A stretch of 35,719 nt of DNA from a virus. The stretch is taken from UHGV virus genome UHGV-0071189. One strand, written 5' to 3'. Made by a program: the position numbers and the translations under genes. This document shows, in pieces, positions 1 through 35,689 of the stretch (the first letter of the stretch is position 1; each line of letters opens with the position of its first letter). The notes below the pieces were generated by a model. It ran no database searches. It was not told the origin of the DNA and saw only the letters and a list, made by a program, of their open reading frames with translations.

Positions 1-30
1 CAAAGACGAGTAATCTGATCTAACTAAAAA

Positions 31-55
31 GGCCGCTCTGCGGCCTTTTTTCTTT
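31..55. repeat. attL core: 25-bp direct repeat GGCCGCTCTGCGGCCTTTTTTCTTT (contains terminator-like hairpin GGCCGC-TCTG-GCGGCC + T-run)
   Basis: Exact copy at 35665..35689; hairpin plus T-tract seen directly. Confidence 0.7.
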
Positions 56-190
56 CAATAACCAATTGATTTATAATGTTTTATATCTCTTCGTTCCACG
101 ATGTGTCCACATTTAGTGGGGGGAGGGGAGTAAGCCCGCTACATTGTGGGCTTTGTCTTATAGTCTGATCACTGTTTCAAGTCGGTGAGG

Positions 191-230
191 ACACCAAAAA
201 GAAAACCCGCAGTTTTTATGCTGCGGGTTT
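191..230 (-). terminator. Rho-independent terminator (stem 203..212/221..230, T-rich tract on minus strand) ending the hok transcript
   Basis: 10-bp perfect stem AAACCCGCAG/CTGCGGGTTT followed on minus strand by TTCTTTTTGGTGT. Confidence 0.5.
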
Positions 231-314
231 GTTTCATGTCTGTGAGATAGAGTGCCTTATCGACCTTACCCTGGCAACCGATTGACGGGGGATTGCTCCC
301 CCGTCGCGGTTTCC

Positions 315-455
315 TTACTGCTTACACTGTAAGAACGCCGCAAACTCCGCTCCCCAGAAGCTCATCCGTATTTCGCACAGTGAACCGTGCAGCATCCAGA
401 TGATGAGGATTGCCGTCACGCAGAACGTGATGGCCGTAAGCGATTTTTGCGACAT
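315..455 (-). CDS. hok: Hok/Gef-family type I toxin (46 aa, MSQKSLTAITFCVTAILIIWMLHGSLCEIRMSFWGAEFAAFLQCKQ)
   Basis: Own translation of minus strand; single TM segment followed by SLCEIR...E.AAFL.C signature of Hok proteins; GGAG 8 nt upstream of ATG; too short for the supplied ORF track. Confidence 0.7.
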   Translation of the reverse strand: MSQKSLTAITFCVTAILIIWMLHGSLCEIRMSFWGAEFAAFLQCKQ

Positions 456-585
456 AGCACTTGCTCCTTTTCCGGAGAGGCGCTAACCTTTCACTTGTCA
501 AGGTAATGCGGTTAGGGCCTCGGTTAAACAGAGATGTTTTCCGGGGCCTTTCCACATCTGGCCTTCGGGTATTCCCTCCGACCAT
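322..585 (-). CDS. mok-like overlapping reading frame (modulator of hok translation), tentative
   Basis: 87-aa ORF in another frame fully overlapping hok, as in hok/mok/sok loci; no independent sequence support. Confidence 0.3.
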   Translation of the reverse strand: MVGGNTRRPDVERPRKTSLFNRGPNRITLTSERLAPLRKRSKCYVAKIAYGHHVLRDGNPHHLDAARFTVRNTDELLGSGVCGVLTV

Positions 586-645
586 CAGCCGAAAGGCACC
601 CGCGCGTAATCTATCGCTTTTTTGTTAATCCGGCAATTCTGCCTG

Positions 646-906
646 TTAGTTCTGAGGTAAAGGCAAACTCATCTGATTGTTTCCCCTGTGTGAAGCTGGC
701 AGCTCATGCCACGGGATACCTTCTGAAGAGTGAACGGCGGAGGCGTGTTTTGATGTGAATTTATGGAAGGCTTCCAGTGTTGAGAAGCATACGCCGCATT
801 CCAGGTTGTTACACTGGTAATACTTTTGCCGCACGGTGTTTGAGTCATTTTCCGGACGACTTGTGCGGATACGGGCAGATGCGCCACAAAGCGGACAACG
901 GAACAT
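646..906 (-). CDS. ogr: Ogr/Delta-family zinc-finger late gene transcription activator
   Basis: N-terminus MFRCPLCG...YYQCNNLECG matches Ogr C-x2-C...C-x4-C zinc finger; position next to att as in P2. Confidence 0.8.
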   Translation of the reverse strand: MFRCPLCGASARIRTSRPENDSNTVRQKYYQCNNLECGVCFSTLEAFHKFTSKHASAVHSSEGIPWHELPASHRGNNQMSLPLPQN

Positions 907-1138: not shown

Positions 1139-2308
1139 ATGGGAAAGAATAGTCAACGTAGGCGAGATAATAAAATTAAGCGAGAAAATGAGAAAAAAAG
1201 AAACTTAGCGGCAAAGATAAATAAAATGTTGTATATAAAGCCTGATATATTTTTTGATGAATCAGGTAATACTGGCGGAAATTTACTCGATCCATTGCAA
1301 CCTGTTTTTACCTTAAGTTCAAGTAGTATTAGTAAACAGGATGCGCTTAAGGCATTAGAACTAACCGGAAGCAAGTCTCCAACAGAAGCCCACTTTAAAA
1401 CTCTTAGACGTAGAAAATCTGGTCAGGATGGCATCATTAGGCTTCTTGAAAGCAAATATGTCAATGAAGAGAATGTTAAAATATACTTGGTCGATAAAAA
1501 ATACATGCTAACAGCAAAGATTGTTGATATTTTGATCGAGACGTGGTGCTCTAATAGAGGAATAGATCTTTATATAAATGGACAGAATCTAGCTCTGTCT
1601 AATGTTTACTATTTCTGTTTCCCTGCTTTCTGTGGGGAGGAAAAAACAGAGGTAATGTATCAGTGTTTTATGAATATGATCAGAAGCCAATCGACTGAGT
1701 CAATTGATGAATTTTACAGGGTAATTGATGAGTTAAAGATATGCTCAAGTGATAAGATATTCACAGATATAATAAACAGAATTAGTATTACCAGAAGCGA
1801 TATTGATGATATATTGGAAGGTGTTGAGAAAAGCACATTAGATCCATCTATACCAAGCCTCTTTAGACACTGTGTAGAATGGGGTAAATTATACCCTAAT
1901 GGTTTTTATATTAAGCATGACGATTCCAAAGCTATTACAGAGAAGAAAGATATTTTTGATAAATTTATGGATATATCAAAAATTACGGAGGCATATGGTT
2001 ATGATCGAAGAAAATTTGAATTGCCAATTAAAGCTCGTTCTTTGACATTCCATTCATCACAAGAGTATCCTCAATTACAAATTGTAGATATAGTAGCAAG
2101 TGCGGCTGCTTATTATGTTAACTGTCTAAAAAGAAATGACTTAGAAGATTATCTCTTTAAAGAACTTCAAAGAATAAAAATAGATAACTATTTTAAAAAT
2201 ATGGCCATTTGGCCTACAACATATGTTACACCTCAAGAATTAGGCACAATTTATACTGGTGGGCGAAACCCTGCAGATGGAGTCGCTGATTATCTTTCTC
2301 AATATTAG
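1139..2308 (+). CDS. AT-rich cargo protein, 389 aa, tentatively DUF3800-like with possible RNase H-like fold; moron between ogr and D
   Basis: N-terminal IFFDESGNTG and C-terminal QLQIVDIVASAA match the DE and QxxD motifs I recall for DUF3800; strongly AT-rich versus backbone; GAGGT RBS; opposite strand to flanking phage genes. Confidence 0.45.
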   Translation: MGKNSQRRRDNKIKRENEKKRNLAAKINKMLYIKPDIFFDESGNTGGNLLDPLQPVFTLSSSSISKQDALKALELTGSKSPTEAHFKTLRRRKSGQDGIIRLLESKYVNEENVKIYLVDKKYMLTAKIVDILIETWCSNRGIDLYINGQNLALSNVYYFCFPAFCGEEKTEVMYQCFMNMIRSQSTESIDEFYRVIDELKICSSDKIFTDIINRISITRSDIDDILEGVEKSTLDPSIPSLFRHCVEWGKLYPNGFYIKHDDSKAITEKKDIFDKFMDISKITEAYGYDRRKFELPIKARSLTFHSSQEYPQLQIVDIVASAAAYYVNCLKRNDLEDYLFKELQRIKIDNYFKNMAIWPTTYVTPQELGTIYTGGRNPADGVADYLSQY

Positions 2309-2399: not shown

Positions 2400-3509
2400 T
2401 CACGCTGTTTCTGCTATCCATTCCGGGATTTTTGCCTCAAGCTCAAGCTGCGTGGTAAAGCCGCTGTTATCAATGGTGTGCTCGGCTTTTGCAATAATCC
2501 AGTCCTGATTGTCGATGTCACTTTTGAAGCCTGTCACCGTGCCATGCATTTCGGGATAGAGTTCTGCACGTCCACGCGCCAGCGTGATGGAGAATGATGC
2601 GGCTCCGCGTTGTAGTTGCTGCCACTTTGCCGCCGCTGCGCGTCTTGCTGCCTGCTCGTTCTGATAAGTCTTGCGTAACACAAACACATTGCCTTCCGCG
2701 CCTTCCATATAATCACCTTCACGGCTGCTGCTTTTCTCCTTTTTGGGTTTTGGCGGTTTACGGCGTTTCACGCTGACTTTTTTCTTTTTCCCGTAATTAA
2801 GATCAAGCCAGTAGGCGCGTACCCCCGTATACGCCTCGCGGTCAGCAATACGGAACTGATGGCGATCGCCGCTGCTGCGTGTAATGGCGAACGAGGGCAA
2901 CGGCTGGCCCTGTGCGTTCACGCCACCACCTGGCATGATGAATAACAGATTGCCGCTTTTTACCGTGGTGATTGCGCCCAGCATTTCCGCCATGCGCGTA
3001 AGGAAGGACATATCGCTTTCTTCGGTCTGGTCGGCGTGGTCGATTTCGATATCCATCAGCATTTCGCTGATTTGCGGTTTCAGACCATACCGATGAGCGA
3101 TGGCGGATACCACACGCTCAACGGTCACATCATGCCAGGACACCTCACGTTTAACGTTAAATTCATCCCGAAAATCTGCGCTTCTGGCTGAAACAGTCAG
3201 CCTGTCCGGCGGTCCTTCGTGAGCGATTTCATCAACAATGTAAGTGCCTTTTTCTGTCAGCGGTTCTCCTTTCCAGCCAATGAGAACCGTCAGGCGCGCG
3301 CCCCGTGGCGGTAGCTGCAACTGACCATCCGCATCATCCAGCGTGATGGTGAGCTGGTCCGCCTCAAATCCCCGGTTGTCGGTCAGTGACAGGCTCATCA
3401 GGCGCTCTGCCACGCCTGACAGCGTTTTACCCTCCGCGAGAATATCAAAATCCGGCATTTTCACGGGGTCTGTGCCCTGACTGAGCAATTGCATGGTGCT
3501 GTCGGTCAT
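2400..3509 (-). CDS. D: Tail protein D (gpD, late control/tail hub protein)
   Basis: LSLTDNRGFEADQLTITLDDADGQL matches P2 gpD family; start taken at internal ATG 3509 with GGGAGGGA RBS (ORF track extends to 3641). Confidence 0.8.
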   Translation of the reverse strand: MTDSTMQLLSQGTDPVKMPDFDILAEGKTLSGVAERLMSLSLTDNRGFEADQLTITLDDADGQLQLPPRGARLTVLIGWKGEPLTEKGTYIVDEIAHEGPPDRLTVSARSADFRDEFNVKREVSWHDVTVERVVSAIAHRYGLKPQISEMLMDIEIDHADQTEESDMSFLTRMAEMLGAITTVKSGNLLFIMPGGGVNAQGQPLPSFAITRSSGDRHQFRIADREAYTGVRAYWLDLNYGKKKKVSVKRRKPPKPKKEKSSSREGDYMEGAEGNVFVLRKTYQNEQAARRAAAAKWQQLQRGAASFSITLARGRAELYPEMHGTVTGFKSDIDNQDWIIAKAEHTIDNSGFTTQLELEAKIPEWIAETA

Positions 3510-3666
3510 CTGTTCCCTCCCTGTGCGGCATGGTCGCATGTGCGTGCGGAGGGGGTTACTGCTTTTTGTTGTCGCCGTGGCGGGAGAACGTCGCAGGGGT
3601 GAGATTACGCGCGTGGTGGGTGATGATTGTTGCCGAATCATTTAACGGATACAAGGGGCTGAAGCT

Positions 3667-11751: not shown

Positions 11752-13902
11752 TTACACCTGTGCGACGTTATACCATGTGCCATTGATGTATTTTTGTATT
11801 GGTCTGAAGATGGCTTCATCATCGCCATCTACTTCACCAATGATTCTTAATCCGGTAATTGCGTGTCCGGCTTTTTCATAACGACCACCACGCGCCATCA
11901 ATTGAACAACACGCGTACCCAGGCGAACATCTTTTACATAGCGTGAATCAAAATTCCCCCAGTTGCTGGGCTGTATCTGACCGTTAACAGAAAATATTAC
12001 CGAGTTATCTGTATTTCGCTGGCTATAGAAATGCCATCCTGCCTCATCGCCTAACTCTGCAACTACTGGACGGGTTGAAGCACCCCATAAATTAAACGTT
12101 GCATTCTTTGTGGAGGTGTTGGAGCTGGATAGCGAGAACTTTTTACTATCACCTGCCTGAATGTTTTTAAAAGCAATAGCAACTCCATTCTGAAAGCGGA
12201 ATACTCGCTGACTATTAGCGTAAACATCCAGAATACCATCACCATTCTGTTTGAATCCGGTGTCATTATCACCAAGAACAATAGAGCTACCACCTAACGC
12301 ATTCGTCGTACCAACTCCAAGACTGCCATTAATGACGGCATTTACCAGAATATTTAGTGCATCCCATTTCAGCGTCATCAGGTCTTTTGTTGTGGTGCTC
12401 TGGCGGCTTCTCCATTTGAAATATTCATTGCCGTTGTCGCCTGTTTCAAACCACATGTATGAATCAGTGTCACCATCAGCATCATTTTTAAATCCAATCT
12501 TCGCCCAGTCAGTATTTCGAATCCAGGCAAGGATTGAGTCATTTTCAAAAGTAAGCCCACCGGACAAGGTATCGCCATTTTTTTGCACGGCGTTACCAGC
12601 CCTGTTTACCGTTTCCTGTAAACCGAGGTATTCGATAACGGCGGCAACGGTCGATTTCGCAAGAATATCCCGCCCGACTTTTGTCAGAGTTGCCAGGCTG
12701 GCGACATCATTCCCCGTAAAATACGGAAACCTGTCTGCCGCAGTAGCAAGCCCGGCCAGCGCCGTCAGGGTGGCATCTTTCGGTTGCTTACCCGCAAGCG
12801 CGTTAGTCATGGTGGTCGCAAAATTCGGGTCGTTGCCCAACGCCGCAGCCAGCTCGTTCAGCGTGTTCAGTGCATCAGGTGACGAATCTACAAGGGCGGC
12901 AATCGCAGCCATAACGAAAGCCGTGCTTGCGATTTGGGTATTATTCGTTCCCTGTCGCGCAGTTGGTGTTGTTGGCGTTCCGGTCAGCGCCGGGCTGTTT
13001 AATGGGGCTTTCTTATTTGTTTCATCCATTACCGCCTTAACCGCTTTCGATGTCGCGGCCAATGTTTCAGACGAGCTGTTGGTGGCACTACTGAGCTGGA
13101 CAATCCCTTTTTGTGCTGTCGTGGCGTCCTGAGCGGTATATTTTGCGTTAGCAAGATCATACGCGGCCTTTACTGCTTTCGGCGTTGCAGCCTGCGTTTC
13201 AGACGTGCTGTTGGTGGCGCTACTGAGCTGGACAAGGCCTTTTCGCGTCGTGCTGGCATCCTGCGCAGTATATTTACCGTTAGCAAGATCATACGCGGCC
13301 TTAACCGCTTTCGGCGTTGCAGCCTGCGTTTCAGACACGCTGTTAGTGGCGCTACTGAGTTGAACAAAGCCTTTTGCGGTCAGCGAGGCGTCCGGGTGAC
13401 GTCGTGACTGTTCATGCTCTTTCAGTTTGTCATCCACGTAATCCACTGTGGCCATCACCATGGTGTTATCCACGGTAAGCGCCACGGTGGCAGTGCTGGA
13501 TACGGTCAGAATGGTGCGAAATGTTTGTGCACGACCGGACCCTTCGGCAACGGCTGGCTTGTAACTTTCGGCAGTATTGCCCACCGCGATTAAATCGCCG
13601 TGCTCATCAAATACACCAATTTCCCGGATCCAGAATCCGCCCGTTTCTGGAGGAATAACCAGCTCTGCAATAATGCGGTTCTGATGTGTTGCGTCCAGGA
13701 TGACGCGATTAACAGTGTGTCGCCACACCTCATGCACCAGACGGGTCTGCTTACTGTCAGGTGTGGGCAATGTACCGCCACCGTCGCCCACGGCCATATG
13801 AGTCAGGCGGACAGGCTTACCATCTGGCGCGGCTGCCTGCGCTAATTTTTTTGCACCCGTATCGGTGATAACGGTTTTAAATTTTCGTGTTGTGGTACTC
13901 AT
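11752..13902 (-). CDS. H: Tail fibre protein H (constant N-terminal part 13902..~12626 plus variable C-terminal part inside the invertible segment)
   Basis: 716 aa; conserved fibre N-terminus; three tandem 39-aa repeats; gix site at codons VIEYLG. Confidence 0.85.
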   Translation of the reverse strand: MSTTTRKFKTVITDTGAKKLAQAAAPDGKPVRLTHMAVGDGGGTLPTPDSKQTRLVHEVWRHTVNRVILDATHQNRIIAELVIPPETGGFWIREIGVFDEHGDLIAVGNTAESYKPAVAEGSGRAQTFRTILTVSSTATVALTVDNTMVMATVDYVDDKLKEHEQSRRHPDASLTAKGFVQLSSATNSVSETQAATPKAVKAAYDLANGKYTAQDASTTRKGLVQLSSATNSTSETQAATPKAVKAAYDLANAKYTAQDATTAQKGIVQLSSATNSSSETLAATSKAVKAVMDETNKKAPLNSPALTGTPTTPTARQGTNNTQIASTAFVMAAIAALVDSSPDALNTLNELAAALGNDPNFATTMTNALAGKQPKDATLTALAGLATAADRFPYFTGNDVASLATLTKVGRDILAKSTVAAVIEYLGLQETVNRAGNAVQKNGDTLSGGLTFENDSILAWIRNTDWAKIGFKNDADGDTDSYMWFETGDNGNEYFKWRSRQSTTTKDLMTLKWDALNILVNAVINGSLGVGTTNALGGSSIVLGDNDTGFKQNGDGILDVYANSQRVFRFQNGVAIAFKNIQAGDSKKFSLSSSNTSTKNATFNLWGASTRPVVAELGDEAGWHFYSQRNTDNSVIFSVNGQIQPSNWGNFDSRYVKDVRLGTRVVQLMARGGRYEKAGHAITGLRIIGEVDGDDEAIFRPIQKYINGTWYNVAQV
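12613..12638. repeat. gix/hix-like recombination site inside H (left boundary of invertible segment), TTCCTGTAAACCGAGGTATTCGATAA
   Basis: Inverted copy of the site at 9935..9960; identical central GTAAACCGAGGT. Confidence 0.75.
13039..13374 (-). repeat. Three tandem 117-bp (39-aa) repeats within H (KG.VQLSSATNS.SETQAATPKAVKAAYDLAN.KYTAQDA)
   Basis: Repeats read directly in the H translation; also produce the repetitive spurious antisense ORF 13111..13407. Confidence 0.75.
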
Positions 13903-25162: not shown

Positions 25163-25589
25163 ACTCTCCAGCTCCTGTATCAATCAGATAATTTCACGAC
25201 GTCTTCCAGCTTATCGCCATCATCGACGGTCAGGCTCTTACGCAATCCCACTGCGCTGACTGCATGTTCTCGCCGCCTCAGTGCGATTTTGACGGCCTTA
25301 TCTGCTACCCCATCAAATCAAAAGTCCTCACGTCTTTTTCATGCTCAGCGTGAGAAATACAGCCATTCTGTTGTGTCGCTGCGACATCGTTCAGGGGATG
25401 CTATTTACCCCCTGAAACGCGGGCTGTTCCCCCGTCACCTGCGCGCAGAAAAAACGCGTTTTTTTGTGCACGCACGGATCCTTGACGGATCCAGTCGCCA
25501 CGCGGGCCGGAAGGGCAAAAAGTCGTTCAAAAAAATTATGCAAATTTGTGCACTATTGTGCAGATGCTGCGGATTATCTCGAAGCCATA

Positions 25590-25617
25590 TTGTGTATTAG
25601 CAAGTGATATGTATACT
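25590..25617 (+). promoter_or_regulatory. Candidate sigma70 promoter of the cargo operon (-35 TTGTGT, 16-bp spacer, -10 TATACT)
   Basis: Hexamers read directly, about 40 bp upstream of GTG start at 25660; not verified. Confidence 0.3.
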
Positions 25618-25659
25618 TTGCAATGAAGTAGTATAGATGTTTGTTAAGTAAGGTGAATT

Positions 25660-27036
25660 GTGAAAAAAATAGATAAAAAGGATGCAAGAAAACGCTTTTT
25701 ACGTGGTTGGATTCGCTTTTTAAAAGGCGTTGAGAGAAAAAATAAAAGAAGAATTAAATATAAAGCCTATGAAAGGTTACATTTTTCTGACGAAGTAACA
25801 CCAGTGAAAAGTCAGGTGGCTACTTTTATTGAAAGTATTTCATCCGTAAAGAAATATGATACTGCAACTCTTCGTCGCAAAGAAGATAGAATAATAATAC
25901 CTAAATATTTCGATTTGTTTGATCATCCAGAAAAATCTCTTTTGTTTATTCATGGTGTAACTAGATTGATTGCCAGGGGTAAACGTAAATCATATTTGCT
26001 TGATTATACTAAAAATAAAAAGCATTGTTTAGGTGCGGAATGTCTCCTTGGTGTTGCACTGAGCTCAGCCAAACGTCACAATATAAATTTAAAAGATGCT
26101 CAAGTACAACTTAATGGCATTTATCCGAAGGATGAAAAATATTTAGAAATTATTCGTGACATCGGGTTGGTTAAAGAAATAAATAAAGTGACGCCAGGGA
26201 AGGTGCATGATGAAACAGAAAAATCGAAAAAAGATAACCCTAAGAAAAGAATATTCTCTGCTGATAGTATCGGCAAGGAAAATGCGTCTGCATTTGCACA
26301 AGATACCAAAAATAGAATGTCTGAGAAATTCACTAATTATATAAACGAGTGTCTAAGTGATCATCAATTAAAATTAGTTAGCAAGGCAGAAAACCATCTA
26401 ACATCTTGCATGGGCGAATTACTTGATAATGCAGAGAGACATTGTGGGCTTGAGCAGCGTCCGCGTTGGTATTTGAGGGGGTTTGTAAATAATGGCTTAA
26501 AACAGCCAACATGTGAAATAGCTGTTTTTAACTTTGGAAAAACTATTGATGAAACTTTTTCAGGACTTTCTTTAGAACATTATTCATATAACAATCACAT
26601 AATCCCTTATGTGGAAAAACACATAAATAAAAAAGGGATGTTTAGAGAAGGTTTGATTACAGTCGCTGCTTTGCAGGGGCGGGTTAGTTGTAAAAATGAA
26701 ACGGAGACAGATAGTTCTGGTACGGGAACCATTGAACTATTGAAGTTTTTCCAGGATATGCATGATAGTTTAAAAGAACTATCCAAAGAACTAAGTGGAA
26801 ACATCAGAATGTCTTTAATTTCTGGATGCACACATATAAACTTTGATGGTTCTTATAAGTTGAAAAAGCAAACGTTAGATAACCAAAGTGACAAATTCAC
26901 TTATCCATTTAATAATACAGGGCTTGAATCTGAACCAGATCGTACCTATCTTAAGTGTATGCAGAAAGCCCGTTTTCCGGGAGTTATGATTAATATACGT
27001 TTTCCTTTACCGGAAAATGCAACTCAAAGAACCTGA
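25660..27036 (+). CDS. Cargo operon gene 1: 458-aa Lys-rich protein with possible GHKL / anti-sigma-factor-kinase-like ATP-binding motifs
   Basis: GTG start with AAGGTG RBS; ELLDNAERH (N-box-like, about residue 253), NFGKT and SGTGT at G1/G2-like spacing; AT-rich; family assignment is motif-based only. Confidence 0.6.
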   Translation: MKKIDKKDARKRFLRGWIRFLKGVERKNKRRIKYKAYERLHFSDEVTPVKSQVATFIESISSVKKYDTATLRRKEDRIIIPKYFDLFDHPEKSLLFIHGVTRLIARGKRKSYLLDYTKNKKHCLGAECLLGVALSSAKRHNINLKDAQVQLNGIYPKDEKYLEIIRDIGLVKEINKVTPGKVHDETEKSKKDNPKKRIFSADSIGKENASAFAQDTKNRMSEKFTNYINECLSDHQLKLVSKAENHLTSCMGELLDNAERHCGLEQRPRWYLRGFVNNGLKQPTCEIAVFNFGKTIDETFSGLSLEHYSYNNHIIPYVEKHINKKGMFREGLITVAALQGRVSCKNETETDSSGTGTIELLKFFQDMHDSLKELSKELSGNIRMSLISGCTHINFDGSYKLKKQTLDNQSDKFTYPFNNTGLESEPDRTYLKCMQKARFPGVMINIRFPLPENATQRT

Positions 27037-27047
27037 GGAATAGGTAA

Positions 27048-27392
27048 ATGAAAATGGCAAATATTTATATAGATTTCAATAAATTAGTTAAAGATGGCGG
27101 CAAGAAATTATTTGCTGGGCGTGATAATGGTCGCAAGGCATATAGTTTCTTTGGCATAGATCGCTTTACTTTTGATAACAATGATAGGATTTTTCTATCA
27201 ATTCCGAATGGTGTGGTTGTGTCAAGCTCATACTTTTTGGGTATGCTAGAGAATATATTGCCTCTTTTTTCATCTCCGAATGAATTTTATAGCAGAACAT
27301 CTTTAGATGGAGTGAATTATAAAGAAGGAATGCTTTCTGAGCTGGATAGGGCTGTGAGAAGAGGATTACATCGAAATGTTCCGTTCTTCTGA
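27048..27392 (+). CDS. Cargo operon gene 2: 114-aa protein, possible STAS-like (anti-sigma-factor antagonist-like) domain
   Basis: GAGGA RBS overlapping gene 1 stop; RIFLSIPNGVVVSSSYFLGML resembles the DSSG.L phosphorylation loop of STAS proteins; speculative. Confidence 0.55.
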   Translation: MKMANIYIDFNKLVKDGGKKLFAGRDNGRKAYSFFGIDRFTFDNNDRIFLSIPNGVVVSSSYFLGMLENILPLFSSPNEFYSRTSLDGVNYKEGMLSELDRAVRRGLHRNVPFF

Positions 27393-28167
27393 TTTGTGCT
27401 CTGTTTTTAAAATGACAGCATTGCCTGTCATTTTTTTTGTTAATATATCCGCTTGCTCTGCGACATATCCAGAAAGAACCGCGTCTAACATGGATTCGCA
27501 AAATTCAGAGTCTCACGTAATAGAACCAAAGAGTGGAAACATTTTTAATGCTGATATATGCATTGGAAAAAATAGCGATCTAAAATTATGCAATAGTTAT
27601 GAAAGGAAGTTTACACCGCACCTTCTTTATGATAAACCTGATAATTATGTTCTGAATGGATATTACCCCTCAACCTCATCGGGGAATCTCTATAATATCG
27701 TTAGAGTTCCTGAATCAGGACCTGAATGGTACTCTATAGCAATTTCAATTATTGCGCTAATTGCATCTGTAGGAGTTCCTTTGTGGCAGCATTATAAAGG
27801 AAGAAATGAAGCTATAAACGAAGGGTATTGGTTACGAGAAGTTATTCTCCCTAAAATTAATGGATTAGCTTTTGAAGTTACGGAAGATTTTAAGGATGCG
27901 ATGGGGCTTCCCCCTGATGAATTTATATCATTACTAGATAGCCAACTATTTTCAAAGCTTGGGGAGTTAAGGGATTCATTATATCTATTTAAGGGTTTTT
28001 CTAAGTTGGAAAAAGATATTGAGTCACTTGATGGTATCTGTGATTTATTTGAGCAAAAGGTTTCTGATAATATTGATTCATCTATTGATACAAGGATTTC
28101 TGATGTATCAATCTTTCATGCTAGCTTAATAAGGGAGCTCATGAAAATGCATAGAAAAATAGGGTGA
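27376..28167 (+). CDS. Cargo operon gene 3: 263-aa predicted lipoprotein/membrane protein (candidate effector)
   Basis: N-terminal signal peptide with ISAC lipobox; internal hydrophobic helix WYSIAISIIALIASVGVPLW; overlaps gene 2 by 17 nt. Confidence 0.55.
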   Translation: MFRSSDLCSVFKMTALPVIFFVNISACSATYPERTASNMDSQNSESHVIEPKSGNIFNADICIGKNSDLKLCNSYERKFTPHLLYDKPDNYVLNGYYPSTSSGNLYNIVRVPESGPEWYSIAISIIALIASVGVPLWQHYKGRNEAINEGYWLREVILPKINGLAFEVTEDFKDAMGLPPDEFISLLDSQLFSKLGELRDSLYLFKGFSKLEKDIESLDGICDLFEQKVSDNIDSSIDTRISDVSIFHASLIRELMKMHRKIG

Positions 28168-28377: not shown

Positions 28378-31161
28378 CTACTCTTTATTTCTATTGTTTA
28401 ACCAAGACTGTAGAAGGTCAGCTTTGCGGCGTACATGCTTTGTGGTTGCACTGATGCGTTGTGCGTGCTCTGCGTCGCGGATGGCGCGCAGCATGTCAGA
28501 AAGCACGGTAACGGGTGTTTTCATGGTGTTCTGGTCCTGCTGAAGTGTGGATGCCAGGCGTGCGGCGGCTTCAGGGTCTGATGCCCCCAGCTGTGCCAGA
28601 TAGCTGGCGACCGGGTTATGGCGGATCTCCGTGCTGCTTACGCCATGATTACGGCTCAGGCGCTGCCAGAGCTGCGTGATTCGGCTGTCCGGGCGGGTAT
28701 CCGGTTTGCGTACAATTTCAAATCCCTGCGGTGCAATGATGCTGCCGTCAACGTACAGACTGCCGCCCCGTAACAGGTGCTGCATCTGTTGTTCACCGAT
28801 ATGCAGGCCGAGAGATTCAGCAGACTCCCGCCATTCTTTAGCGAGTAATTCGTGGTTATCAGGCAAAGGCCGCTGCTGTTTGCGGCTCTGTGTCCAGCTC
28901 TGCATTTCATCACTGCTGTTTTTTGCCTGTTTGTCACGAAGCGAACGCATCAGCGCCCGGCGTTCGTGCCGTTTCAGTGAGCGCATCCATTCGTTCACTT
29001 CAACGCCGTCAGGGAGCTGCGGCCACGGTGCTGGCCGTTCTTCCGGCTGTTCTGTCCCGTTGTTGTCCGTTTCCTGTACACGGGGACAGTTATTGCCACG
29101 AGTCCAAGGGGCGGCAGGGCCGCCCTGAAGGTCAAAACCATTTTCGCGGGCGCTGTCTTCCGCTTCCGGTTTGCGTCTTACCAGCTTCCAGTTATCCGGA
29201 TGCGTGCATACGCGGGAAGACTCCCCAATGAGCGGCGACCAGATCCCGTAAATCTGTACGCTCTGTTCGCCGTAATCATTCAGCTCATCTGCGAGGTCGT
29301 AGGCGGTGCGAATCAGGTAGTCTTTGCGTGGAACAAGCACGCCACCCTGTTTCTCAATGTAGGTGGCAAAACACCCGGCATCAGCGGCAGCGAGTACCGC
29401 ATCCATTGCGTCATCCTTCAGCCGTTGCGGGCCTTCCGGGTTGCGTGCCATCTGGCTGGCAAGGCGGCGTAGTTCACGCCACACCTGACGGGAGGGGATG
29501 CCAAAGAACTGGAACTGGCGGACCCGGTGAAGGCGCGCCCAGCCGATGGCGCGCTCCACGCTCTCGGCCATTGATTTTCCGGTTTCGTGGTCAACGCGTG
29601 GCTTGCCCGTTTTCGGGTCGATGCCATCTACGGCGCGGCTGTCCAGGTTTTTTCCGATGTAGGTCGCGATATAGCTGGTTGGTGTGCCTTTTGAGCCGTC
29701 GACGTACTCCGCCTTAAAGCGCGGAGTAATATCATTACCCAGCTCGTGGCGGTCTTCCTGAATGGCAATATCGCGGGTGATGGCCACGATGCTGTCGATT
29801 TCTTCCGGATGAGCAAAGACCATCATATGCCAGTGCACGGTGCCGTCATGGTGAGGCTCCACCGTGCGGATGCCATACCAGCGAAGACCGTCGCGGTTCA
29901 GTTTTTTGCGGACTGCCGCAAAAAACGTGTTAACCAGGTAATCGCTGGAGTCGCGCATGGTGGCCCCGTTCCATTTGGGATTCGGATGACCGTTCTCTGT
30001 TGTGGCGTGGTATTTTGACGGGCAGGTGACAGTCAGAAACACCGCTTTGTCGCCACGGGCTTCGGCCAGAAGTTCCAGCCCCTTCATGGTGGCCATCATT
30101 TCTGCCTTACGGTGAACCGGGTTACTTACTCCCGCGTAATACACTGTCTCGAGATCAATCGTGAACCCGTCTTCGTTTTCCAGCATGAAACTTTTCAGGA
30201 AATCGCGTGTTTTCTCGCGCTGTGCGCGAAACTCGCTTAACGCGTCCTGGCTCAGATAGGGCGATGTTTTTCTGGAAACCAGACAGGCGGCGCGGAGTTG
30301 TTCTTCTCTCCACTCGCAACGTAACAGCCACAGTTTGCGTTTCCACCATTCCGCACAGGTCAGGCGAAGGATTGCGCCCGGCAGCAGCTCCGTGTCCGGT
30401 TCGTTCCTCCGGTCTTTGTCTGTTGTCAGTGCGTCATAATGTGGAGGTATGGCGTGCAGGTGTAACGCCATGCGGGCCAGCATCTGATACGCCTTCAGCG
30501 TTACATCCATGGTCAGTTCGCCATCAGTCGCGCCAAAGCCATCGCAGAGTTTTTCGAAGGTGCTGCTGAACATCGCCGCCGTCATGGTGGCCAGCGTCTG
30601 TATCTGGTGTTTGTTGAGCTGCGGCAGGTAAAGCAAATCGTCCAGGCGTTCGCGTCCGGCAAGGGAGCGATAACCCGGTGTCAGCCAGCGGTGATCGGTG
30701 CGGTCCAGACGTTCGAATATTTTGCGCAGGGTTCCGCGCGCGTAGCGTTCAGCCTGCCAGCTCTTTTGGCCTTTCTGGCGATCGGCTTCCTGTTTTTTGC
30801 GCAGGAAAGAGAGGTGGCGGCTCAGAGGTTCACGCAGATAAACGGGAAGCACCTTCAGTGTGGCAAAAGCACGGGCCACCGGGTCTTGTTCTGTTGCCTG
30901 ACGCTTGCTGATGATGCTTTGTGCCAGCTTTTCACGCTGTCCGGCTTCCTCAAGGGATGCCATGAGTTTTTTACCCACGGTGGATTGTGCGAAAAAGGCT
31001 TCCTCCTTCGCTTCCTGTTCTTCCAGAGCCTTTTTGTCTGCCTCAAGGTAGTAACGGATGGCGCGTTGCAGGTCGGTTTCAGTTTCCTGCCTGTGCTCCG
31101 TAAATCTGGCCGGATCAATGGCTGGCCGTGGTTCATTCCAGCTCCATGCAAACTCACTCAT
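28378..31161 (-). CDS. A: Replication initiation protein A (rolling-circle initiator/endonuclease)
   Basis: Large early protein with HWHMMVF and YIATYIGK (Y-x3-Y active-site-like) motifs; start at 31161 overlaps upstream stop (ATGA); track start 31188. Confidence 0.8.
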   Translation of the reverse strand: MSEFAWSWNEPRPAIDPARFTEHRQETETDLQRAIRYYLEADKKALEEQEAKEEAFFAQSTVGKKLMASLEEAGQREKLAQSIISKRQATEQDPVARAFATLKVLPVYLREPLSRHLSFLRKKQEADRQKGQKSWQAERYARGTLRKIFERLDRTDHRWLTPGYRSLAGRERLDDLLYLPQLNKHQIQTLATMTAAMFSSTFEKLCDGFGATDGELTMDVTLKAYQMLARMALHLHAIPPHYDALTTDKDRRNEPDTELLPGAILRLTCAEWWKRKLWLLRCEWREEQLRAACLVSRKTSPYLSQDALSEFRAQREKTRDFLKSFMLENEDGFTIDLETVYYAGVSNPVHRKAEMMATMKGLELLAEARGDKAVFLTVTCPSKYHATTENGHPNPKWNGATMRDSSDYLVNTFFAAVRKKLNRDGLRWYGIRTVEPHHDGTVHWHMMVFAHPEEIDSIVAITRDIAIQEDRHELGNDITPRFKAEYVDGSKGTPTSYIATYIGKNLDSRAVDGIDPKTGKPRVDHETGKSMAESVERAIGWARLHRVRQFQFFGIPSRQVWRELRRLASQMARNPEGPQRLKDDAMDAVLAAADAGCFATYIEKQGGVLVPRKDYLIRTAYDLADELNDYGEQSVQIYGIWSPLIGESSRVCTHPDNWKLVRRKPEAEDSARENGFDLQGGPAAPWTRGNNCPRVQETDNNGTEQPEERPAPWPQLPDGVEVNEWMRSLKRHERRALMRSLRDKQAKNSSDEMQSWTQSRKQQRPLPDNHELLAKEWRESAESLGLHIGEQQMQHLLRGGSLYVDGSIIAPQGFEIVRKPDTRPDSRITQLWQRLSRNHGVSSTEIRHNPVASYLAQLGASDPEAAARLASTLQQDQNTMKTPVTVLSDMLRAIRDAEHAQRISATTKHVRRKADLLQSWLNNRNKE

Positions 31162-31547
31162 GGCTGGTATCCCGTCACGCGCTGCCACTCCTGCGAGAAG
31201 AGGGCAGAAAGGCGGTTAAATTCAGCGGTGTATTCACTCAGCGAGGCACACCCGCCAGCAGTGCGATGCGCCAGCATTGCCGCAAATACGGAGGCCGGGG
31301 AGTCGTAATACGCCAGCAGTGATTCTCCGTGTGGTGTCAGGCAGTGCAACGCCAGCCCGTGTGGTGTGAAGTCCACGCGGTAGCAGTCGTCTACTGTGAA
31401 ATAAAGGGTGTCTGCATTCTCCGGTTTTGTGGTGCGTGCTCTGTTGTCACGACCACGGATGTAGAGATCAAATAATCGCTGAAGAACGGGAGCCAGACGG
31501 GTGTCCTGTGTGCGCACCCATCTTGTGAAGTCATGAGCGTCAATCAT
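31158..31547 (-). CDS. Hypothetical early protein (129 aa)
   Basis: ORF translationally coupled to A; no recognisable motif. Confidence 0.5.
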   Translation of the reverse strand: MIDAHDFTRWVRTQDTRLAPVLQRLFDLYIRGRDNRARTTKPENADTLYFTVDDCYRVDFTPHGLALHCLTPHGESLLAYYDSPASVFAAMLAHRTAGGCASLSEYTAEFNRLSALFSQEWQRVTGYQP

Positions 31548-33537: not shown

Positions 33538-33849
33538 ATGTCAAGTGGGTACGAAAAAAAACTGAAAGAGATACGGAAAAGTGAAGGGTTAACTCAAGCT
33601 GAGTTTGCTGATGTTACTGGGATAAATCTCGGAACTATAAAGAATTATGAGAGCGGTAAAAGAGAGGTTGGTTTAAGCGTTGTTGATCGCGTAATTAATT
33701 CTAAGGATTTCGAAAAATACACTATATGGCTTATGACGGGAAAAACAAATGAGGCTGCTGGGCAGATCAGTCCCTCTCTCTCCCCTGATGGGCCAGAAAA
33801 CACATCGTCTTCTCAAAAATCCCGCAAGACTGGTACACAGCCCGGCTAA
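33538..33849 (+). CDS. C: Immunity repressor C (XRE-family HTH)
   Basis: LTQAEFADVTGINLGTIKNYESG helix-turn-helix; 103 aa; upstream of int; GGAGA RBS. Confidence 0.8.
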   Translation: MSSGYEKKLKEIRKSEGLTQAEFADVTGINLGTIKNYESGKREVGLSVVDRVINSKDFEKYTIWLMTGKTNEAAGQISPSLSPDGPENTSSSQKSRKTGTQPG

Positions 33850-33898
33850 TCATGGAACGCTGGGGGCATGGTGGTCTTGTAACGCTGGGGTTTCACGA

Positions 33899-34870
33899 AT
33901 GAGCATAAAATCAATTCCGGGAGGGTATCTTCTTGACATGCGCCCTGAGGGGCGTAAAGGCAAACGCATCCGCAAAAAATTTAAAACGAAATCGGATGCA
34001 GTTTTATATGAGCGGTGGGTGTTGGCGCAACAGCATAACAATGAGTGGAAAGGAAACTCTATTGATCGCCGTCCTCTGTCAGTGCTTATTGACTTGTGGT
34101 GGAAATACCACGGCCAGCTAATGAAGTCAGGGCATAACACGCGCCTTAAATTGCTGCGCTTGAGTGAGGCAATGGATGACCCGTGCGTGCATAAACTTAA
34201 TACAACAATGCTCACCGAGCTACGTGTGTCCAGGATAGAGCAGGGGATACAGCCCAGCACCATAAATCGAGAGATTGGGGCGTTAAGCGCGATGTTTACC
34301 GCACTCATCTCATCCGGCCATTTTCTTAATGATAACCCCGTTCAAGGCCTTAAAGGAATGAAGGTTAACGAGCGTGAAATGGGATATCTGAGTAAGTCTG
34401 AATGTGTTCAGTTGCTGGATGCACTGGCTGAAAATCCCGATGAACGGCTGGCTGTCGAAATCCTTCTGTCGACCGGGGCGCGATGGGGCGAGGTAGCGGC
34501 ACTGGAGCAACGCCGCGTTCTGCATTGTCGAATCACTTTTTCAAAAACGAAGAACAGCAAAAACCGTACCGTTCCTATTTCTGAAAGCCTGTTTGAAAAG
34601 ATCAAAAAACGGGGCGGGAAACTGGTGTTTCCGACGCTGGATTATCCATTGGTTCGCGATGTCATCAAAACGGTCGCACCTGATGTTCCTGACGGCCAGG
34701 CTGTTCATGCGCTGCGCCACACCTTCGCCAGTCATTTCATGATGAACGGCGGCAATATTCTGACGCTCCAGAAAATTCTGGGGCACGCAAAGATTCAGAC
34801 AACGATGATTTATGCCCATCTTGCGCCGGATTACCTGCAGGATGCGGTGAGATTTAATCCAATAGCTTGA
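33899..34870 (+). CDS. int: Tyrosine integrase
   Basis: ARWGE...HALRHTFAS...LGHAKIQTTMIYAHL catalytic motifs; start placed at ATG 33899 downstream of C (track ORF starts 33749). Confidence 0.85.
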   Translation: MSIKSIPGGYLLDMRPEGRKGKRIRKKFKTKSDAVLYERWVLAQQHNNEWKGNSIDRRPLSVLIDLWWKYHGQLMKSGHNTRLKLLRLSEAMDDPCVHKLNTTMLTELRVSRIEQGIQPSTINREIGALSAMFTALISSGHFLNDNPVQGLKGMKVNEREMGYLSKSECVQLLDALAENPDERLAVEILLSTGARWGEVAALEQRRVLHCRITFSKTKNSKNRTVPISESLFEKIKKRGGKLVFPTLDYPLVRDVIKTVAPDVPDGQAVHALRHTFASHFMMNGGNILTLQKILGHAKIQTTMIYAHLAPDYLQDAVRFNPIA

Positions 34871-34880
34871 AGGTAGGAAA

Positions 34881-35264
34881 ATGAAAGATATTGAACATTC
34901 AGGGGACATGGAAAAGAAAAAACGGGAGTTTATTAAAAAACTGGAATCGATAACGCCAAGAGAATTCTTCCGTTTTTTAAATGAAAAAAACGTCACTGTG
35001 GTTTGCCCTGGGTGCGGGCTGAAAGATACCCAGATAACTGCCACTACAGGTAAGTTAAATCTCCAACAACTCCTGGATGGTGAAAAAGGGGAAGAGTTTA
35101 TGACGTACTTCAGGCTTGAACCAGGTCACCCAGGTGATAGTGATGCGAATTATTACTACAAATCTTTTTGTGAGAACTGTGGTTATATAACTATGCATGC
35201 AGTGACTCCGGTATTGAACTGGCTGGGATCGCAAAAAAACCAGGAAGGGTCAGGTGATGAATGA
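34881..35264 (+). CDS. Cargo protein, 127 aa, zinc-ribbon-like (CPGCG ... CENCG)
   Basis: Two CxxC pairs; AGGTAGGA RBS; sits between int and attR. Confidence 0.5.
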   Translation: MKDIEHSGDMEKKKREFIKKLESITPREFFRFLNEKNVTVVCPGCGLKDTQITATTGKLNLQQLLDGEKGEEFMTYFRLEPGHPGDSDANYYYKSFCENCGYITMHAVTPVLNWLGSQKNQEGSGDE

Positions 35265-35556
35265 GTATACTTATATCACGGGTTTTTCCATTCCGTATCC
35301 AGGAGGAATTCAGGTGAGCAATCGCAGAAGTCAGGCAAGTCGTGATGAGTTCGCTCTTGATAGCCGTGTTGCACGAATGGAGTCTGATATCTCATACATC
35401 AAGAGAGATATTGAAGAGCTGAAGAGCGATCTCAAGGATGTGAGAGGCGATATTGATAAGATACGCACAACAGATTTCAGGATCATGTTTGGTGCGTTGA
35501 TTACTACAGCCTTGGGGTTAGCTGGCTTAATGGCGAGAGGTTTTCACTGGATTTAA
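35254..35556 (+). CDS. Cargo protein, 100 aa, coiled-coil with C-terminal TM anchor (XhlA-like architecture)
   Basis: Heptad-like segment DISYIKRDIEELKSDLKDVRGDIDKI followed by hydrophobic FGALITTALGLAGLMA; overlaps upstream gene by 11 nt. Confidence 0.45.
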   Translation: MMNEYTYITGFSIPYPGGIQVSNRRSQASRDEFALDSRVARMESDISYIKRDIEELKSDLKDVRGDIDKIRTTDFRIMFGALITTALGLAGLMARGFHWI

Positions 35557-35664: not shown

Positions 35665-35689
35665 GGCCGCTCTGCGGCCTTTTTTCTTT
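35665..35689. repeat. attR core: second copy of the 25-bp direct repeat
   Basis: Exact match to 31..55. Confidence 0.7.

Follow-up and report, generated by a model that had tools for sequence, protein, structure and literature searches.

A Hok-family toxin gene with a predicted antisense RNA antidote between ogr and the attachment site of a P2-like prophage

In this study, we concluded that the stretch of viral DNA examined (35,719 nucleotides of genome UHGV-0071189, hereafter the window) very probably carries at positions 196-636 a complete hok/sok-type type I toxin–antitoxin (TA) cassette, an accessory unit between ogr and the att site of a P2-like prophage. The presence of a Hok-family type I toxin gene with a predicted antisense RNA antidote was confirmed; the gene is real but had been catalogued before. 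The evidence consists of the family membership of the encoded peptide, conserved promoters on both strands, covarying RNA helices and the recurrent position of the locus in P2-like prophages.

The Hok peptide and its place in the prophage

The elements that fix the gene and its surroundings are as follows.

31..55, no strand: left att core, a 25-bp direct repeat GGCCGCTCTGCGGCCTTTTTTCTTT, identical to 35665-35689
315..455, minus strand: hok coding sequence, 46 codons and stop, reading MSQKSLTAITFCVTAILIIWMLHGSLCEIRMSFWGAEFAAFLQCKQ
646..906, minus strand: ogr, encoding the late-gene activator zinc-finger protein (Pfam Ogr_Delta, 52.5 bits)

An earlier reading of the letters alone (the sequence-only reading) had proposed a 46-aa minus-strand peptide with one transmembrane segment and the Hok signature, and this peptide was found at 315..455. 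Its single hydrophobic stretch spans about residues 5-22, where the Kyte-Doolittle mean over 15 residues reaches 2.55, and the peptide carries the motif SLCEIR...EFAAFLQC. The published Hok logo (Escalera-Maurer et al., bioRxiv 10.1101/2025.08.07.668861) describes proteins of about 50 aa with one N-terminal transmembrane helix, in which C-x-T is conserved, together with L-C-E, a C-terminal E and, close to the end, a C or Y. The corresponding residues here are C12-V-T14, L26-C27-E28, E37 and C44. Alignment to Hok/Gef profiles, which the sequence-only reading had suggested as a check, supported the assignment: Pfam PF01848 (HOK_GEF) matched with 29.9 bits against a gathering score of 22 bits (E 4.1e-7, profile positions 5-42 of 42), and PHROG 251 with 80.6 bits. 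All 67 homologues are named Hok/Gef, and the reading frame is intact at 46 codons in every one of 46 distinct relatives.

Among curated families, the closest NCBIfam model is HokA (NF007290), the chromosomal E. coli hokA/sokA type, but its 34 bits compare with an equivalog cut-off of 89, so the peptide is HokA-like and not HokA. It shares 39% identity and the pattern MxQK...WM...SLCE...AAFLxC with a HokA-like sequence. The peptide is assigned to Hok cluster 72 in the HokA-like branch, as a predicted single-helix membrane toxin.

The gene itself is an ordinary and already known one. RefSeq annotates it as "Hok/Gef family protein" (WP_000078916.1), and among 5426 complete E. coli genomes 1553, more than a quarter, have a match. 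In the Hok survey, entry 72_1621 is the identical 46-aa peptide; its clone, LRP137, was according to the text toxic when induced with arabinose and is not one of the three non-toxic constructs of 45, and cluster 72 was rated as highly abundant (Escalera-Maurer et al., bioRxiv 10.1101/2025.08.07.668861). That survey treats 72_1621 as a coding sequence only, with Sok, mok, the mRNA structure and the position between ogr and att outside its scope.

The prophage is P2-like (P88/Xuanwuvirus-like) and is inserted behind ihfA in E. coli. The terminator hairpin of ihfA, with its T tract, falls on the att core at 31..55; in strain O104:H4, ihfA is immediately upstream, and the Rfam family STnc540 matches partially at 1-99. 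The sequence-only reading had placed the locus at the att-proximal end, from attL to ogr; the repeat and ogr bear out this position, whereas "attL" is only a label for the left of the window. The integrase gene (33749-34870) is at the other prophage end from the cassette. The same position, from ogr to att, is common to many P2-like prophages of E. coli and Salmonella. Among the best 80 viral contigs with an identical Hok, 74 have ogr less than 1.6 kb upstream; in Salmonella P2-like prophages the order gpD-ogr-hok occurs beside differing host genes, and the viable phages Chuche and P88 carry the cassette. As those 80 loci all encode the identical peptide and offer little diversity, sequence diversity was taken from contigs encoding eight diverged homologues. 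A search of genome contigs gave six loci, of which three, labelled as a Planococcaceae MAG, Vagococcus and Xanthomonas pisi, have E. coli-like sequence; these contigs are probably contaminants and were used as sequence only.

In phage records the present gene appears as "MokW-like host killing", a label that comes from PHROG 251 and points to hokW-sokW of the Stx2 prophage Sp5/933W, likewise prophage-borne. Identity with the published hokW was considered and ruled out, as the cluster and the locus are different: HokW has 51 aa, is HokD-like, begins MKQQKAM and belongs to a lambdoid phage at another position, and the present peptide is 28% identical to the HokW-like entry 35_712. The database label is thus a misnomer, the gene being hok and not mok.

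The hok mRNA and its antisense RNA

The elements assigned to the two RNAs are listed here from the hok promoter onwards, with the plus-strand elements last.

608..636, minus strand: putative hok promoter, -35 TTGCCG (636-631), 17-nt spacer, -10 TAGATT (613-608)
196..601, minus strand: predicted full-length hok mRNA, about 405 nt, 5' end GGGUGCC, both ends predicted
589..601, minus strand: tac-like 5' element, pairing with fbi (250-263) or locally
567..601, minus strand: alternative local 5' hairpin using the same tac nucleotides, formed without the 3' end
464..469, minus strand: hok Shine-Dalgarno AAGGAG, 8 nt before the ATG, with predicted pairing to CUCC 474-477
284..305, minus strand: G+C-rich hairpin directly after the hok stop
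250..263, minus strand: fbi-like 3' element complementary to the mRNA 5' end
196..230, minus strand: intrinsic terminator of the hok mRNA
461..489, plus strand: Sok promoter, -35 TTGCTC (461-466), 17-nt spacer, -10 TAACCT (484-489)
497..553, plus strand: predicted Sok RNA, about 57 nt, start placed from the promoter, 3' end approximate

The hok promoter begins 10 nt past the ogr stop codon, and in the alignment its -10 element, TAGAWT, keeps the same distance from GGGTGCC in diverged loci. A terminator hairpin at 203..230 with a T-tract had been noticed earlier from the letters and was recovered by a terminator scan; on the minus strand, UUUUCUUUUU comes after a stem at 230-203, in which 7 of 10 pairs covary among relatives. 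The putative mRNA folds with an MFE of -177 kcal/mol (z -7.4 against shuffles) and with its 5' and 3' ends paired.

This end-to-end pairing is the tac/fbi interaction, which the sequence-only reading had proposed to seek by folding the 3' region, and which was found as a covarying pairing of 589-601 with 250-263. It was recovered de novo by RNAalifold and is also present in the single-sequence MFE fold. Eleven pairs are formed, four of them with compensatory changes among the 46 distinct relatives, and helices 1 and 2 are 98.8% and 96.7% paired. The covarying pairs join columns 35-38 with 385-389 (UA in 29 and CG in 16 sequences; CG in 30 and GC in 16; GC in 28 and AU in 15; GU in 24, CG in 11 and GC in 6). 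In the window fbi reads AAGGCACUC, with one G-U pair in place of the consensus G-C. When fbi was removed (fold of 601..262), nucleotides 1-35 adopted the local hairpin, which is kept in all 14 distinct GGGUGCC-bearing 5' variants (-14.8 to -20.1 kcal/mol); each variant was folded separately, in place of a column-wise covariation test, as indels shift the register between lineages. The Shine-Dalgarno helix (columns 150-155 with 176-181) is 99.6% paired and encloses the site in both the full and the 3'-shortened folds. In the MFE fold of the 3'-shortened mRNA, the hok Shine-Dalgarno and AUG were still paired, and the activating rearrangement was not reproduced in silico. The hairpin at 284..305 has nine pairs, five with compensatory changes, and is 99% paired; a hairpin occupies the equivalent place in an R1-type locus, and by this analogy the present one is likely to protect the 3' end of the processed hok mRNA. 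Over the 46 relatives, 96.3% of cells in the conserved structure are paired versus 34-45% in slid controls, 26 pairs are compensatory versus 3-10, and none of 500 shuffles reached the conserved-structure score. Together with the Pfam and Rfam matches and the z-score of the mRNA fold, these values place the locus far outside what chance would give.

The sequence-only reading had expected a Sok-like RNA on the plus strand at about 480..600 and had named a search for its promoter as a check. A conserved promoter was located at 461-489 and, behind it, a predicted RNA at about 497-553. The -35 element is antisense to the hok Shine-Dalgarno region, and the promoter is kept in all 49 loci as a -35 element (TTGCTC, TTTACT or a close variant), a 17-nt spacer and TAACCT or TATCCT. 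The predicted RNA consists of a mostly single-stranded 5' tail (497-515), a hairpin (516-548) and UUUCC; it folds with -24.9 kcal/mol (z -3.7), and the hairpin stem covaries, GC being replaced by AU in seven sequences and CG by UA in two. Some features count against the cassette: only three U's follow the Sok stem, and the -10 elements TAGATT of hok and TAACCT of Sok are imperfect, neither promoter being called in a strict consensus scan.

[quoted passage not shown] Both have, in order, the promoter, tac, the Sok terminator hairpin, the antisense Sok promoter over the Shine-Dalgarno, hok, the G+C-rich hairpin, fbi and the terminator; the R1 Sok promoter is homologous and in the same place (TTGCGC, 17 nt, TATCCT). 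Both also match one Rfam model, the hok/sok leader RF01794, which covers 601..442 of the minus strand end to end (model positions 1-157, E 1.7e-9). The present leader scores 48.4 bits, below the gathering score of 59, and the whole window gave no match at gathering; relatives score 33-52 bits and an R1-type leader 87 bits on the hok strand. The R1 locus differs in its carrier, a plasmid rather than a prophage, and in its toxin of 52 instead of 46 aa, which is 30% identical to the present Hok. A further relative is the 46-aa Hok beside lom in Stx/lambdoid phages (933W L0129; entry 72_1589), which belongs to the same cluster 72; the peptides are 74% identical, and the cassettes about 80% identical at the nucleotide level. 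Its tac, fbi and Sok promoter are all present, but it resides in another phage family, after lom and not ogr, and lacks its own terminator hairpin at the equivalent place, the next gene following directly.

Considering the above results, we propose a model in which the transcripts, their processing and their dependence on RNase III are inferred. Judging from the sequence, a sigma-70-type promoter just past the ogr stop codon would give rise to a hok mRNA of about 405 nt. According to the folds, the fresh mRNA would be shut, with tac paired with fbi and with the Shine-Dalgarno and start codon within helices. By analogy with plasmid R1, slow 3' trimming would strip the terminator and fbi, and the 5' end would then flip to the local hairpin, allowing the mRNA to bind ribosomes and Sok. 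From the plus-strand promoter over the hok Shine-Dalgarno, Sok (about 497-553) would be made as a short and unstable RNA. Its 5' tail is predicted to anneal to the part of the hok leader that precedes the start codon by 41-98 nt, and the resulting duplex would then be destroyed, in characterised relatives by RNase III; in R1, the Sok-hok duplex is cut by this enzyme, and Sok is unstable while the hok mRNA is stable (PMC9841398). Once Sok synthesis stops, the stable hok mRNA pool would be translated and Hok would depolarise the inner membrane.

Most chromosomal hok loci of E. coli K-12 are inactive, and the present cassette could in principle be such a relic with no present function. K-12 hokA is split by IS150, with mokA and sokA annotated as pseudogenes; one related copy (L093) has lost its 5' tac element, and the G-U pair in the window arises from a C-to-U change in fbi. 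We regard this explanation as highly improbable, because in the window the promoters, tac, fbi, helices and reading frame are intact and, with compensatory changes, conserved in E. coli, Salmonella and Klebsiella, toxicity has been reported for the identical peptide, and the cassette travels with the viable phages named above.

Possible roles in the prophage

The sequence-only reading had suggested an addiction or abortive module, which is plausible. Of the possible roles, we favour an addiction-like one in which the cassette would stabilise the prophage by killing cells that lose it. Since P2-like prophages excise only rarely, there is less need for such a function.

Our second choice is killing upon transcription shut-off by an infecting phage. 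In such abortive infection, a lytic phage would stop host transcription, Sok would decay and Hok would kill the cell before the phage cycle ends. P2-like phages carry defence genes at variable spots, which speaks for this role, but the PADLOC models gave no match for Hok or the neighbouring cargo. The Hok survey mentions a role of Hok in phage defence and reports hok genes to be about four-fold enriched in prophages but not enriched beside defence systems (Escalera-Maurer et al., bioRxiv 10.1101/2025.08.07.668861). Taken together, we consider abortive infection a doubtful candidate.

Another role would be to aid lysis and phage release after prophage induction. The cassette is directly downstream of the late-gene activator ogr, and read-through of late transcription is conceivable. 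However, the hok mRNA has its own promoter and, to our knowledge, P2-like prophages are generally not SOS-inducible. [quoted passage not shown] As HokW belongs to a different Hok cluster, at 28% identity, and to a lambdoid SOS-inducible phage, we hold a role in lysis to be unlikely for the present cassette.

The hok leader and mok

In the R1 model, Sok acts through mok, and the sequence-only reading had assigned this part to an overlapping open reading frame.

322..585, minus strand: 87-aa ORF in another frame than hok, present here, not a conserved element

The frame exists as described, but no conservation as mok was found. Its full 87 codons occur in 5 of the 46 distinct sequences and a 70-codon version in 6, most others being closed and without a start, and its product had no match in Pfam, NCBIfam or PHROGs. 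With neither a family match nor a conserved frame, the ORF was rejected as a real protein, and its annotation as mok is unwarranted.

The wider leader gave a similar picture. Half of the distinct relatives (23/46) lack, in every frame, an upstream ATG, GTG or TTG from which translation would run across the hok start, and such a start lies within the predicted Sok target in only 12 of 46. Nor is any leader ORF, with the same start codons and in any frame, conserved in both start and stop among the 46 sequences; the sole recurrent one is the three-codon GTG-AAA-GGT-TAG (36/46), which is without a Shine-Dalgarno. Most alleles have stops in all three frames at most 46 nt upstream of hok, with no start codon after them. 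The stretch matching the R1 mok start is the most variable part of the locus, and where R1 has its mok ATG, the present cluster has no conserved start codon. The hokA locus also differs, as mokA is annotated with the stop of hokA and is thus an in-frame extension, whereas the present hok frame is closed upstream by TAG at -30 or TAA at -9. A mok gene is characteristic of the R1 model and does not define membership of the Hok family. Control of the present cassette is probably independent of a mok reading frame, unlike in R1.

It might still be argued that the allele in the window uses the 87-aa frame, or the shorter version from TTG 501, as a true mok: initiation within the Sok target would let ribosomes run on and free the hok start, as in R1, and Sok would work by blocking this initiation. 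The frame is indeed open across the hok start from ATG 585, GTG 555 and TTG 501 in the window and its closest relatives (12/46), and TTG 501 is within the predicted Sok target with a GAGG (518-521) upstream. Yet the 16 nt from GAGG to TTG exceed normal Shine-Dalgarno spacing, and the TTG (499-501) is TAA or TAG in 17 other sequences, some of which encode the identical Hok, including phage Chuche and the alleles L002, L006 and L011. As read-through starts are absent from so many relatives, start and stop positions vary and no family matches, we think it unlikely that this allele uses a mok.

We tentatively suggest instead that Hok cluster 72 represents a natural mok-less hok/sok variant, a proposal that we see as quite possible but short of probable; a literature search on mok-less hok loci found nothing relevant. 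The mok step of R1 has no conserved counterpart here, and in a mok-less locus Sok would need to control Hok without blocking a leader ORF. Sok could then act through duplex-triggered decay alone or through a structural switch, and its hypervariable 5' tail would give each copy its own specificity. Such copy-specific tails would account for the coexistence of two to three tandem copies in Salmonella prophages.

As the peptide is catalogued and reported as toxic and the prophage enrichment is published, the gene carries little weight as a discovery. For cluster 72, the RNA parts (Sok, tac/fbi and the two promoters) now have base-level positions. Furthermore, if the cluster is truly mok-less, it would be an abundant natural system for Sok-type translation control without a leader peptide, and it could show how co-resident hok/sok copies avoid cross-talk.

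The hok gene and its published record

The cassette is a real locus whose core was correctly recognised by the sequence-only reading, and it is already known. Its elements, and those of the prophage that carries it, are as follows.

315..455, minus strand: hok ORF, 46 aa, MSQKSLTAITFCVTAILIIWMLHGSLCEIRMSFWGAEFAAFLQCKQ, read from window 170-680
322..585, minus strand: 87-aa ORF in a frame other than that of hok
636-631 and 613-608, minus strand: hok promoter (-35 TTGCCG, 17 nt, -10 TAGATT), read from sequence
461-466 and 484-489, plus strand: Sok promoter (-35 TTGCTC, 17 nt, -10 TAACCT)
from near G497, plus strand: predicted Sok RNA, ~57 nt, with a mostly single-stranded 5' tail (497-515), a hairpin (516-548) and UUUCC
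230-203, minus strand: terminator hairpin, then UUUUCUUUUU, from a terminator scan
646..906, minus strand: ogr (Pfam Ogr_Delta, 52.5 bits)
31-55 and 35665-35689: 25-bp direct repeat (att core), GGCCGCTCTGCGGCCTTTTTTCTTT, bracketing the P2-like prophage
2400-3641: gpD
28378-31188: gpA
33538-33849: HTH repressor-like gene
33749-34870: integrase

The 46-aa peptide matched Pfam HOK_GEF (PF01848) at 29.9 bits (gathering score 22, E 4.1e-7) and PHROG 251 at 80.6 bits, and has one hydrophobic stretch at residues ~5-22, in agreement with the Hok identity and single transmembrane segment proposed from sequence alone. HokA (NF007290) was the closest curated model, at only 34 bits for a cut-off of 89; identity was 39% to a HokA-like sequence, 30% to R1 Hok and 28% to the HokW-like entry 35_712. 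The ORF was intact at 46 codons in 46/46 sequences, and the gene, a member of the Hok family, is under purifying constraint. The published hokW of Sp5 was ruled out as its identity, as hokW has 51 aa and starts MKQQKAM. The closest phage paralogue is the 46-aa hok adjoining lom in Stx phages (933W L0129; entry 72_1589), with 74% protein and ~80% DNA identity. Found after lom in Stx and lambdoid phages (collected loci L003, 1564-1704, and L107, 2001-2141; 933W L0129), it forms a second, unstudied cassette, distinct from the published hokW-sokW and without its own terminator hairpin.

E. coli O104:H4 outbreak genomes, along with other strains, carry the 551-bp region at 100% identity, and 1553 of 5426 complete E. 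coli genomes have a match. The RefSeq name of the ORF, which lies downstream of pheS-pheT-ihfA, is "Hok/Gef family protein" (WP_000078916.1). Phage records, among them Chuche, P88, PhiR44_2, Xuanwuvirus P884B11, 500465-2 and Citrobacter phage Shae_phiSM, carry the gene beside an ogr-like regulator as "MokW-like host killing", a label derived from PHROG 251. A protein search returned 67 relatives in E. coli, Shigella, Salmonella and Klebsiella oxytoca, nearly all of 46 aa, the named ones all called Hok/Gef. Three collected loci labelled Planococcaceae MAG, Vagococcus sp. and Xanthomonas pisi (L004, L005, L008) carry enterobacterial hok at 72-98% identity and probably represent contamination of those assemblies by E. 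coli or Salmonella DNA. Escalera-Maurer et al. (bioRxiv 10.1101/2025.08.07.668861), who report that hok is four-fold enriched in prophages, list exactly this peptide in their Table S2 as entry 72_1621 of the "high-abundance cluster" 72, and cloned it as plasmid LRP137. In that study 42 of 45 Hok homologues tested were toxic; 72_1621 is not among the three named non-toxic entries (19_179, 60_1482 and 69_1540) and is therefore toxic according to its text, so that the toxicity test proposed in the sequence-only reading has already been done by others.

Promoters, Sok RNA and folding of the hok mRNA

The hok promoter starts 10 nt past the ogr stop, and its position predicts a transcript start at G601; diverged loci keep the -10 as TAGAWT, with its spacing to GGGTGCC. 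The antisense promoter sought on the plus strand lies at 461-489 and recurred in 49/49 loci examined, with a -35 (TTGCTC, TTTACT or a near variant), 17 nt, and TAACCT or TATCCT. An R1-type locus has its counterpart, TTGCGC, 17 nt and TATCCT, in the homologous position, where it runs antisense to the Shine-Dalgarno region of hok. A strict consensus scan called neither promoter, and both assignments therefore rest on conservation and homology; the predicted sense and antisense promoters are shown to be conserved. The predicted Sok RNA folds at -24.9 kcal/mol (z -3.7).

Related loci were collected, 50 distinct cassettes were extracted, and 46 distinct mRNA regions were aligned (alignment A2). Unguided RNAalifold on A2 gave long-range pairing of the 5' end (tac, 589-601) with the 3' element (fbi, 250-263), a hairpin corresponding to the Sok terminator of the opposite strand, a helix around the Shine-Dalgarno sequence of hok, base pairs between hok codons 1-5 and an invariant GCGGAGUUUGCGGC in codons 36-40, and a G+C-rich hairpin directly 3' of the stop. 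When pairs were counted on this structure plus the terminator, 96.3% of cells were paired, against 34-45% in controls with partners slid by 1-3 columns; compensatory change was seen in 26 pairs (controls, 3-10), and none of 500 shuffles reached the observed covariation score. All four pairs of the tac/fbi extension covaried (UA 29/CG 16, CG 30/GC 16, GC 28/AU 15, GU 24/CG 11/GC 6).

The 408-nt RNA of the window folded at -177 kcal/mol (z -7.4) with its ends paired, and when cut 5' of fbi its first 35 nt refolded as a local hairpin, which was kept in 14/14 distinct 5' variants bearing the GGGUGCC element. Two mutually exclusive 5'-end pairings are a hallmark of hok mRNAs (summarised in PMC9841398). 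The mRNA architecture is thus shown to be closed and covarying, with an alternative 5' hairpin; the tac/fbi pairing that folding was expected to reveal was found, and the T-tract terminator noted in the sequence-only reading was also called by the scan. An inactive relic is accordingly unlikely, the elements of the cassette being intact and covarying.

Rfam RF01794 ("sok") matched 601..442 on the minus strand (model positions 1-157, E 1.7e-9) at 48.4 bits, below its gathering score of 59. At the R1-type locus it scored 87 bits on the hok strand, with a match running from the 5' end of the mRNA as far as the ATG of hok; the model therefore represents the hok leader in sense, and the window match is the equivalent region. 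Named "sok antitoxin", it is built in hok-sense orientation over the whole leader up to the hok ATG (232-403 in L108, an R1-type plasmid locus; window 442-601), and its matches therefore fall on the toxin strand.

In one Salmonella copy (L093, 2849-3000), situated where a prophage tail-fibre region ends, the 5' tac element has been lost and the remaining cassette kept. Many predicted prophage contigs (L014, L016, L020 and many other IMG/VR loci, length 2641) end 3 nt past the hok stop, so that gene-based boundary calls remove the fbi element and terminator.

The upstream reading frame and mok

In R1, mok must be translated as far as the hok Shine-Dalgarno sequence, and the mok start is where Sok acts (PMC9841398). 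The R1-type locus has an ATG 9 nt past GAGG in the Sok target, whereas the cluster of the window has no conserved counterpart. The 87-aa ORF is present as reported, but its assignment as mok is rejected. Among the 46 sequences no upstream ORF was conserved in both start and stop, 23 had no upstream ATG, GTG or TTG reading through the hok ATG in any frame, and the product matched no family in Pfam, NCBIfam or PHROGs. A start inside the Sok target occurred in only 12, as the window's TTG 499-501; 10 others have TAA and 7 have TAG in its place. Alleles with identical Hok, such as that of phage Chuche, lack the frame, and most alleles have stops in all three frames in the 46 nt before hok. What was read as mok is thus a lineage-specific open frame that does not define the cassette, although it may be translated in this allele.

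In most alleles the closing stops, equivalent to window 483-501, are TAA or TAG at -46, TGA at -38 and TAG at -30, with no start codon after them; of these the window lacks only the -46 stop, replaced by TTG. The Sok tail and its target (window 497-515; A2 columns ~118-140) vary more than any other stretch of the cassette, which is highly conserved elsewhere, a pattern which suggests copy-specific antisense recognition with no coding constraint there.

Because the L108 allele is 1 nt shorter than the R1 sequence, its mok start codon (330-403) shares the hok frame, and mok would there extend Hok at its N terminus.

Prophage setting and biological role

The left att core and ogr flank the cassette, and its att-proximal location thus stands; "attL" holds for the core at 31-55 only as a left-of-window label, the integrase being at the other end. 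The att core coincides in position with the hairpin and T tract that terminate ihfA (window 1-99, 35665-35689; partial Rfam STnc540 match at 1-99), and integration therefore regenerates a terminator at both junctions. In 74/80 viral contigs encoding identical Hok, ogr lies <1.6 kb upstream on the same strand, and the cassette is shown to have a fixed place at the ogr-att junction. Salmonella P2-like prophages have gpD-ogr-hok followed directly by different host genes, and hence different integration sites, with one, two or three tandem cassettes. Three follow ogr ~498 bp apart in L100-L102 (hok at 1005, 1503 and 2001), and chromosomal islets carry two (L090/L091, hok at 3001 and 3491/3495); tandem copies differ chiefly in the Sok tail and its target stretch. 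Elsewhere in the cluster, the gene follows lom in lambdoid phages, occurs close to a relaxase on plasmid-like contigs, or shares a small chromosomal islet with other toxin-antitoxin genes.

Several other genes of the window were noted. A DUF3800 gene (1139-2308, plus strand) lies opposite in strand between ogr and gpD; its GC of 0.30-0.35, against ~0.5-0.55 around it, marks it as a foreign accessory gene, and it had no PADLOC match. In O104:H4 an IS5-like ISKpn26 separates it from ogr, an insertion absent from the window. Four plus-strand ORFs just before gpA (25289-28167; 103, 458, 114 and 263 aa) had no Pfam match, nor did the three searched in PADLOC match there; they are classed as cargo. 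Neither of two small plus-strand ORFs between the integrase and right att core (34881-35556; 127 and 100 aa) matched PADLOC, the first giving only a weak zinc-ribbon hint. Three tandem 132-nt units, 76-82% identical (13034-13393), lie within a 716-aa minus-strand ORF (11752-13902) which, judged solely by size and position, is probably a tail fibre.

By analogy with R1 and hokW-sokW, the stable closed hok mRNA would be slowly trimmed at its 3' end and then refold, and unstable Sok would pair with the hok leader for cleavage of the duplex by RNase III; once Sok synthesis was lost, Hok would be made and the inner membrane depolarised. Addiction-like stabilisation of the prophage is the role we favour. 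Abortive infection is an alternative, as is help with lysis, by analogy with hokW-sokW (PMC8621323). Beyond what was known, this analysis maps Sok, tac/fbi and the promoters at base level, rejects the assignment of the 87-aa ORF as mok, and points to abundant cluster 72 as one that may work without mok.
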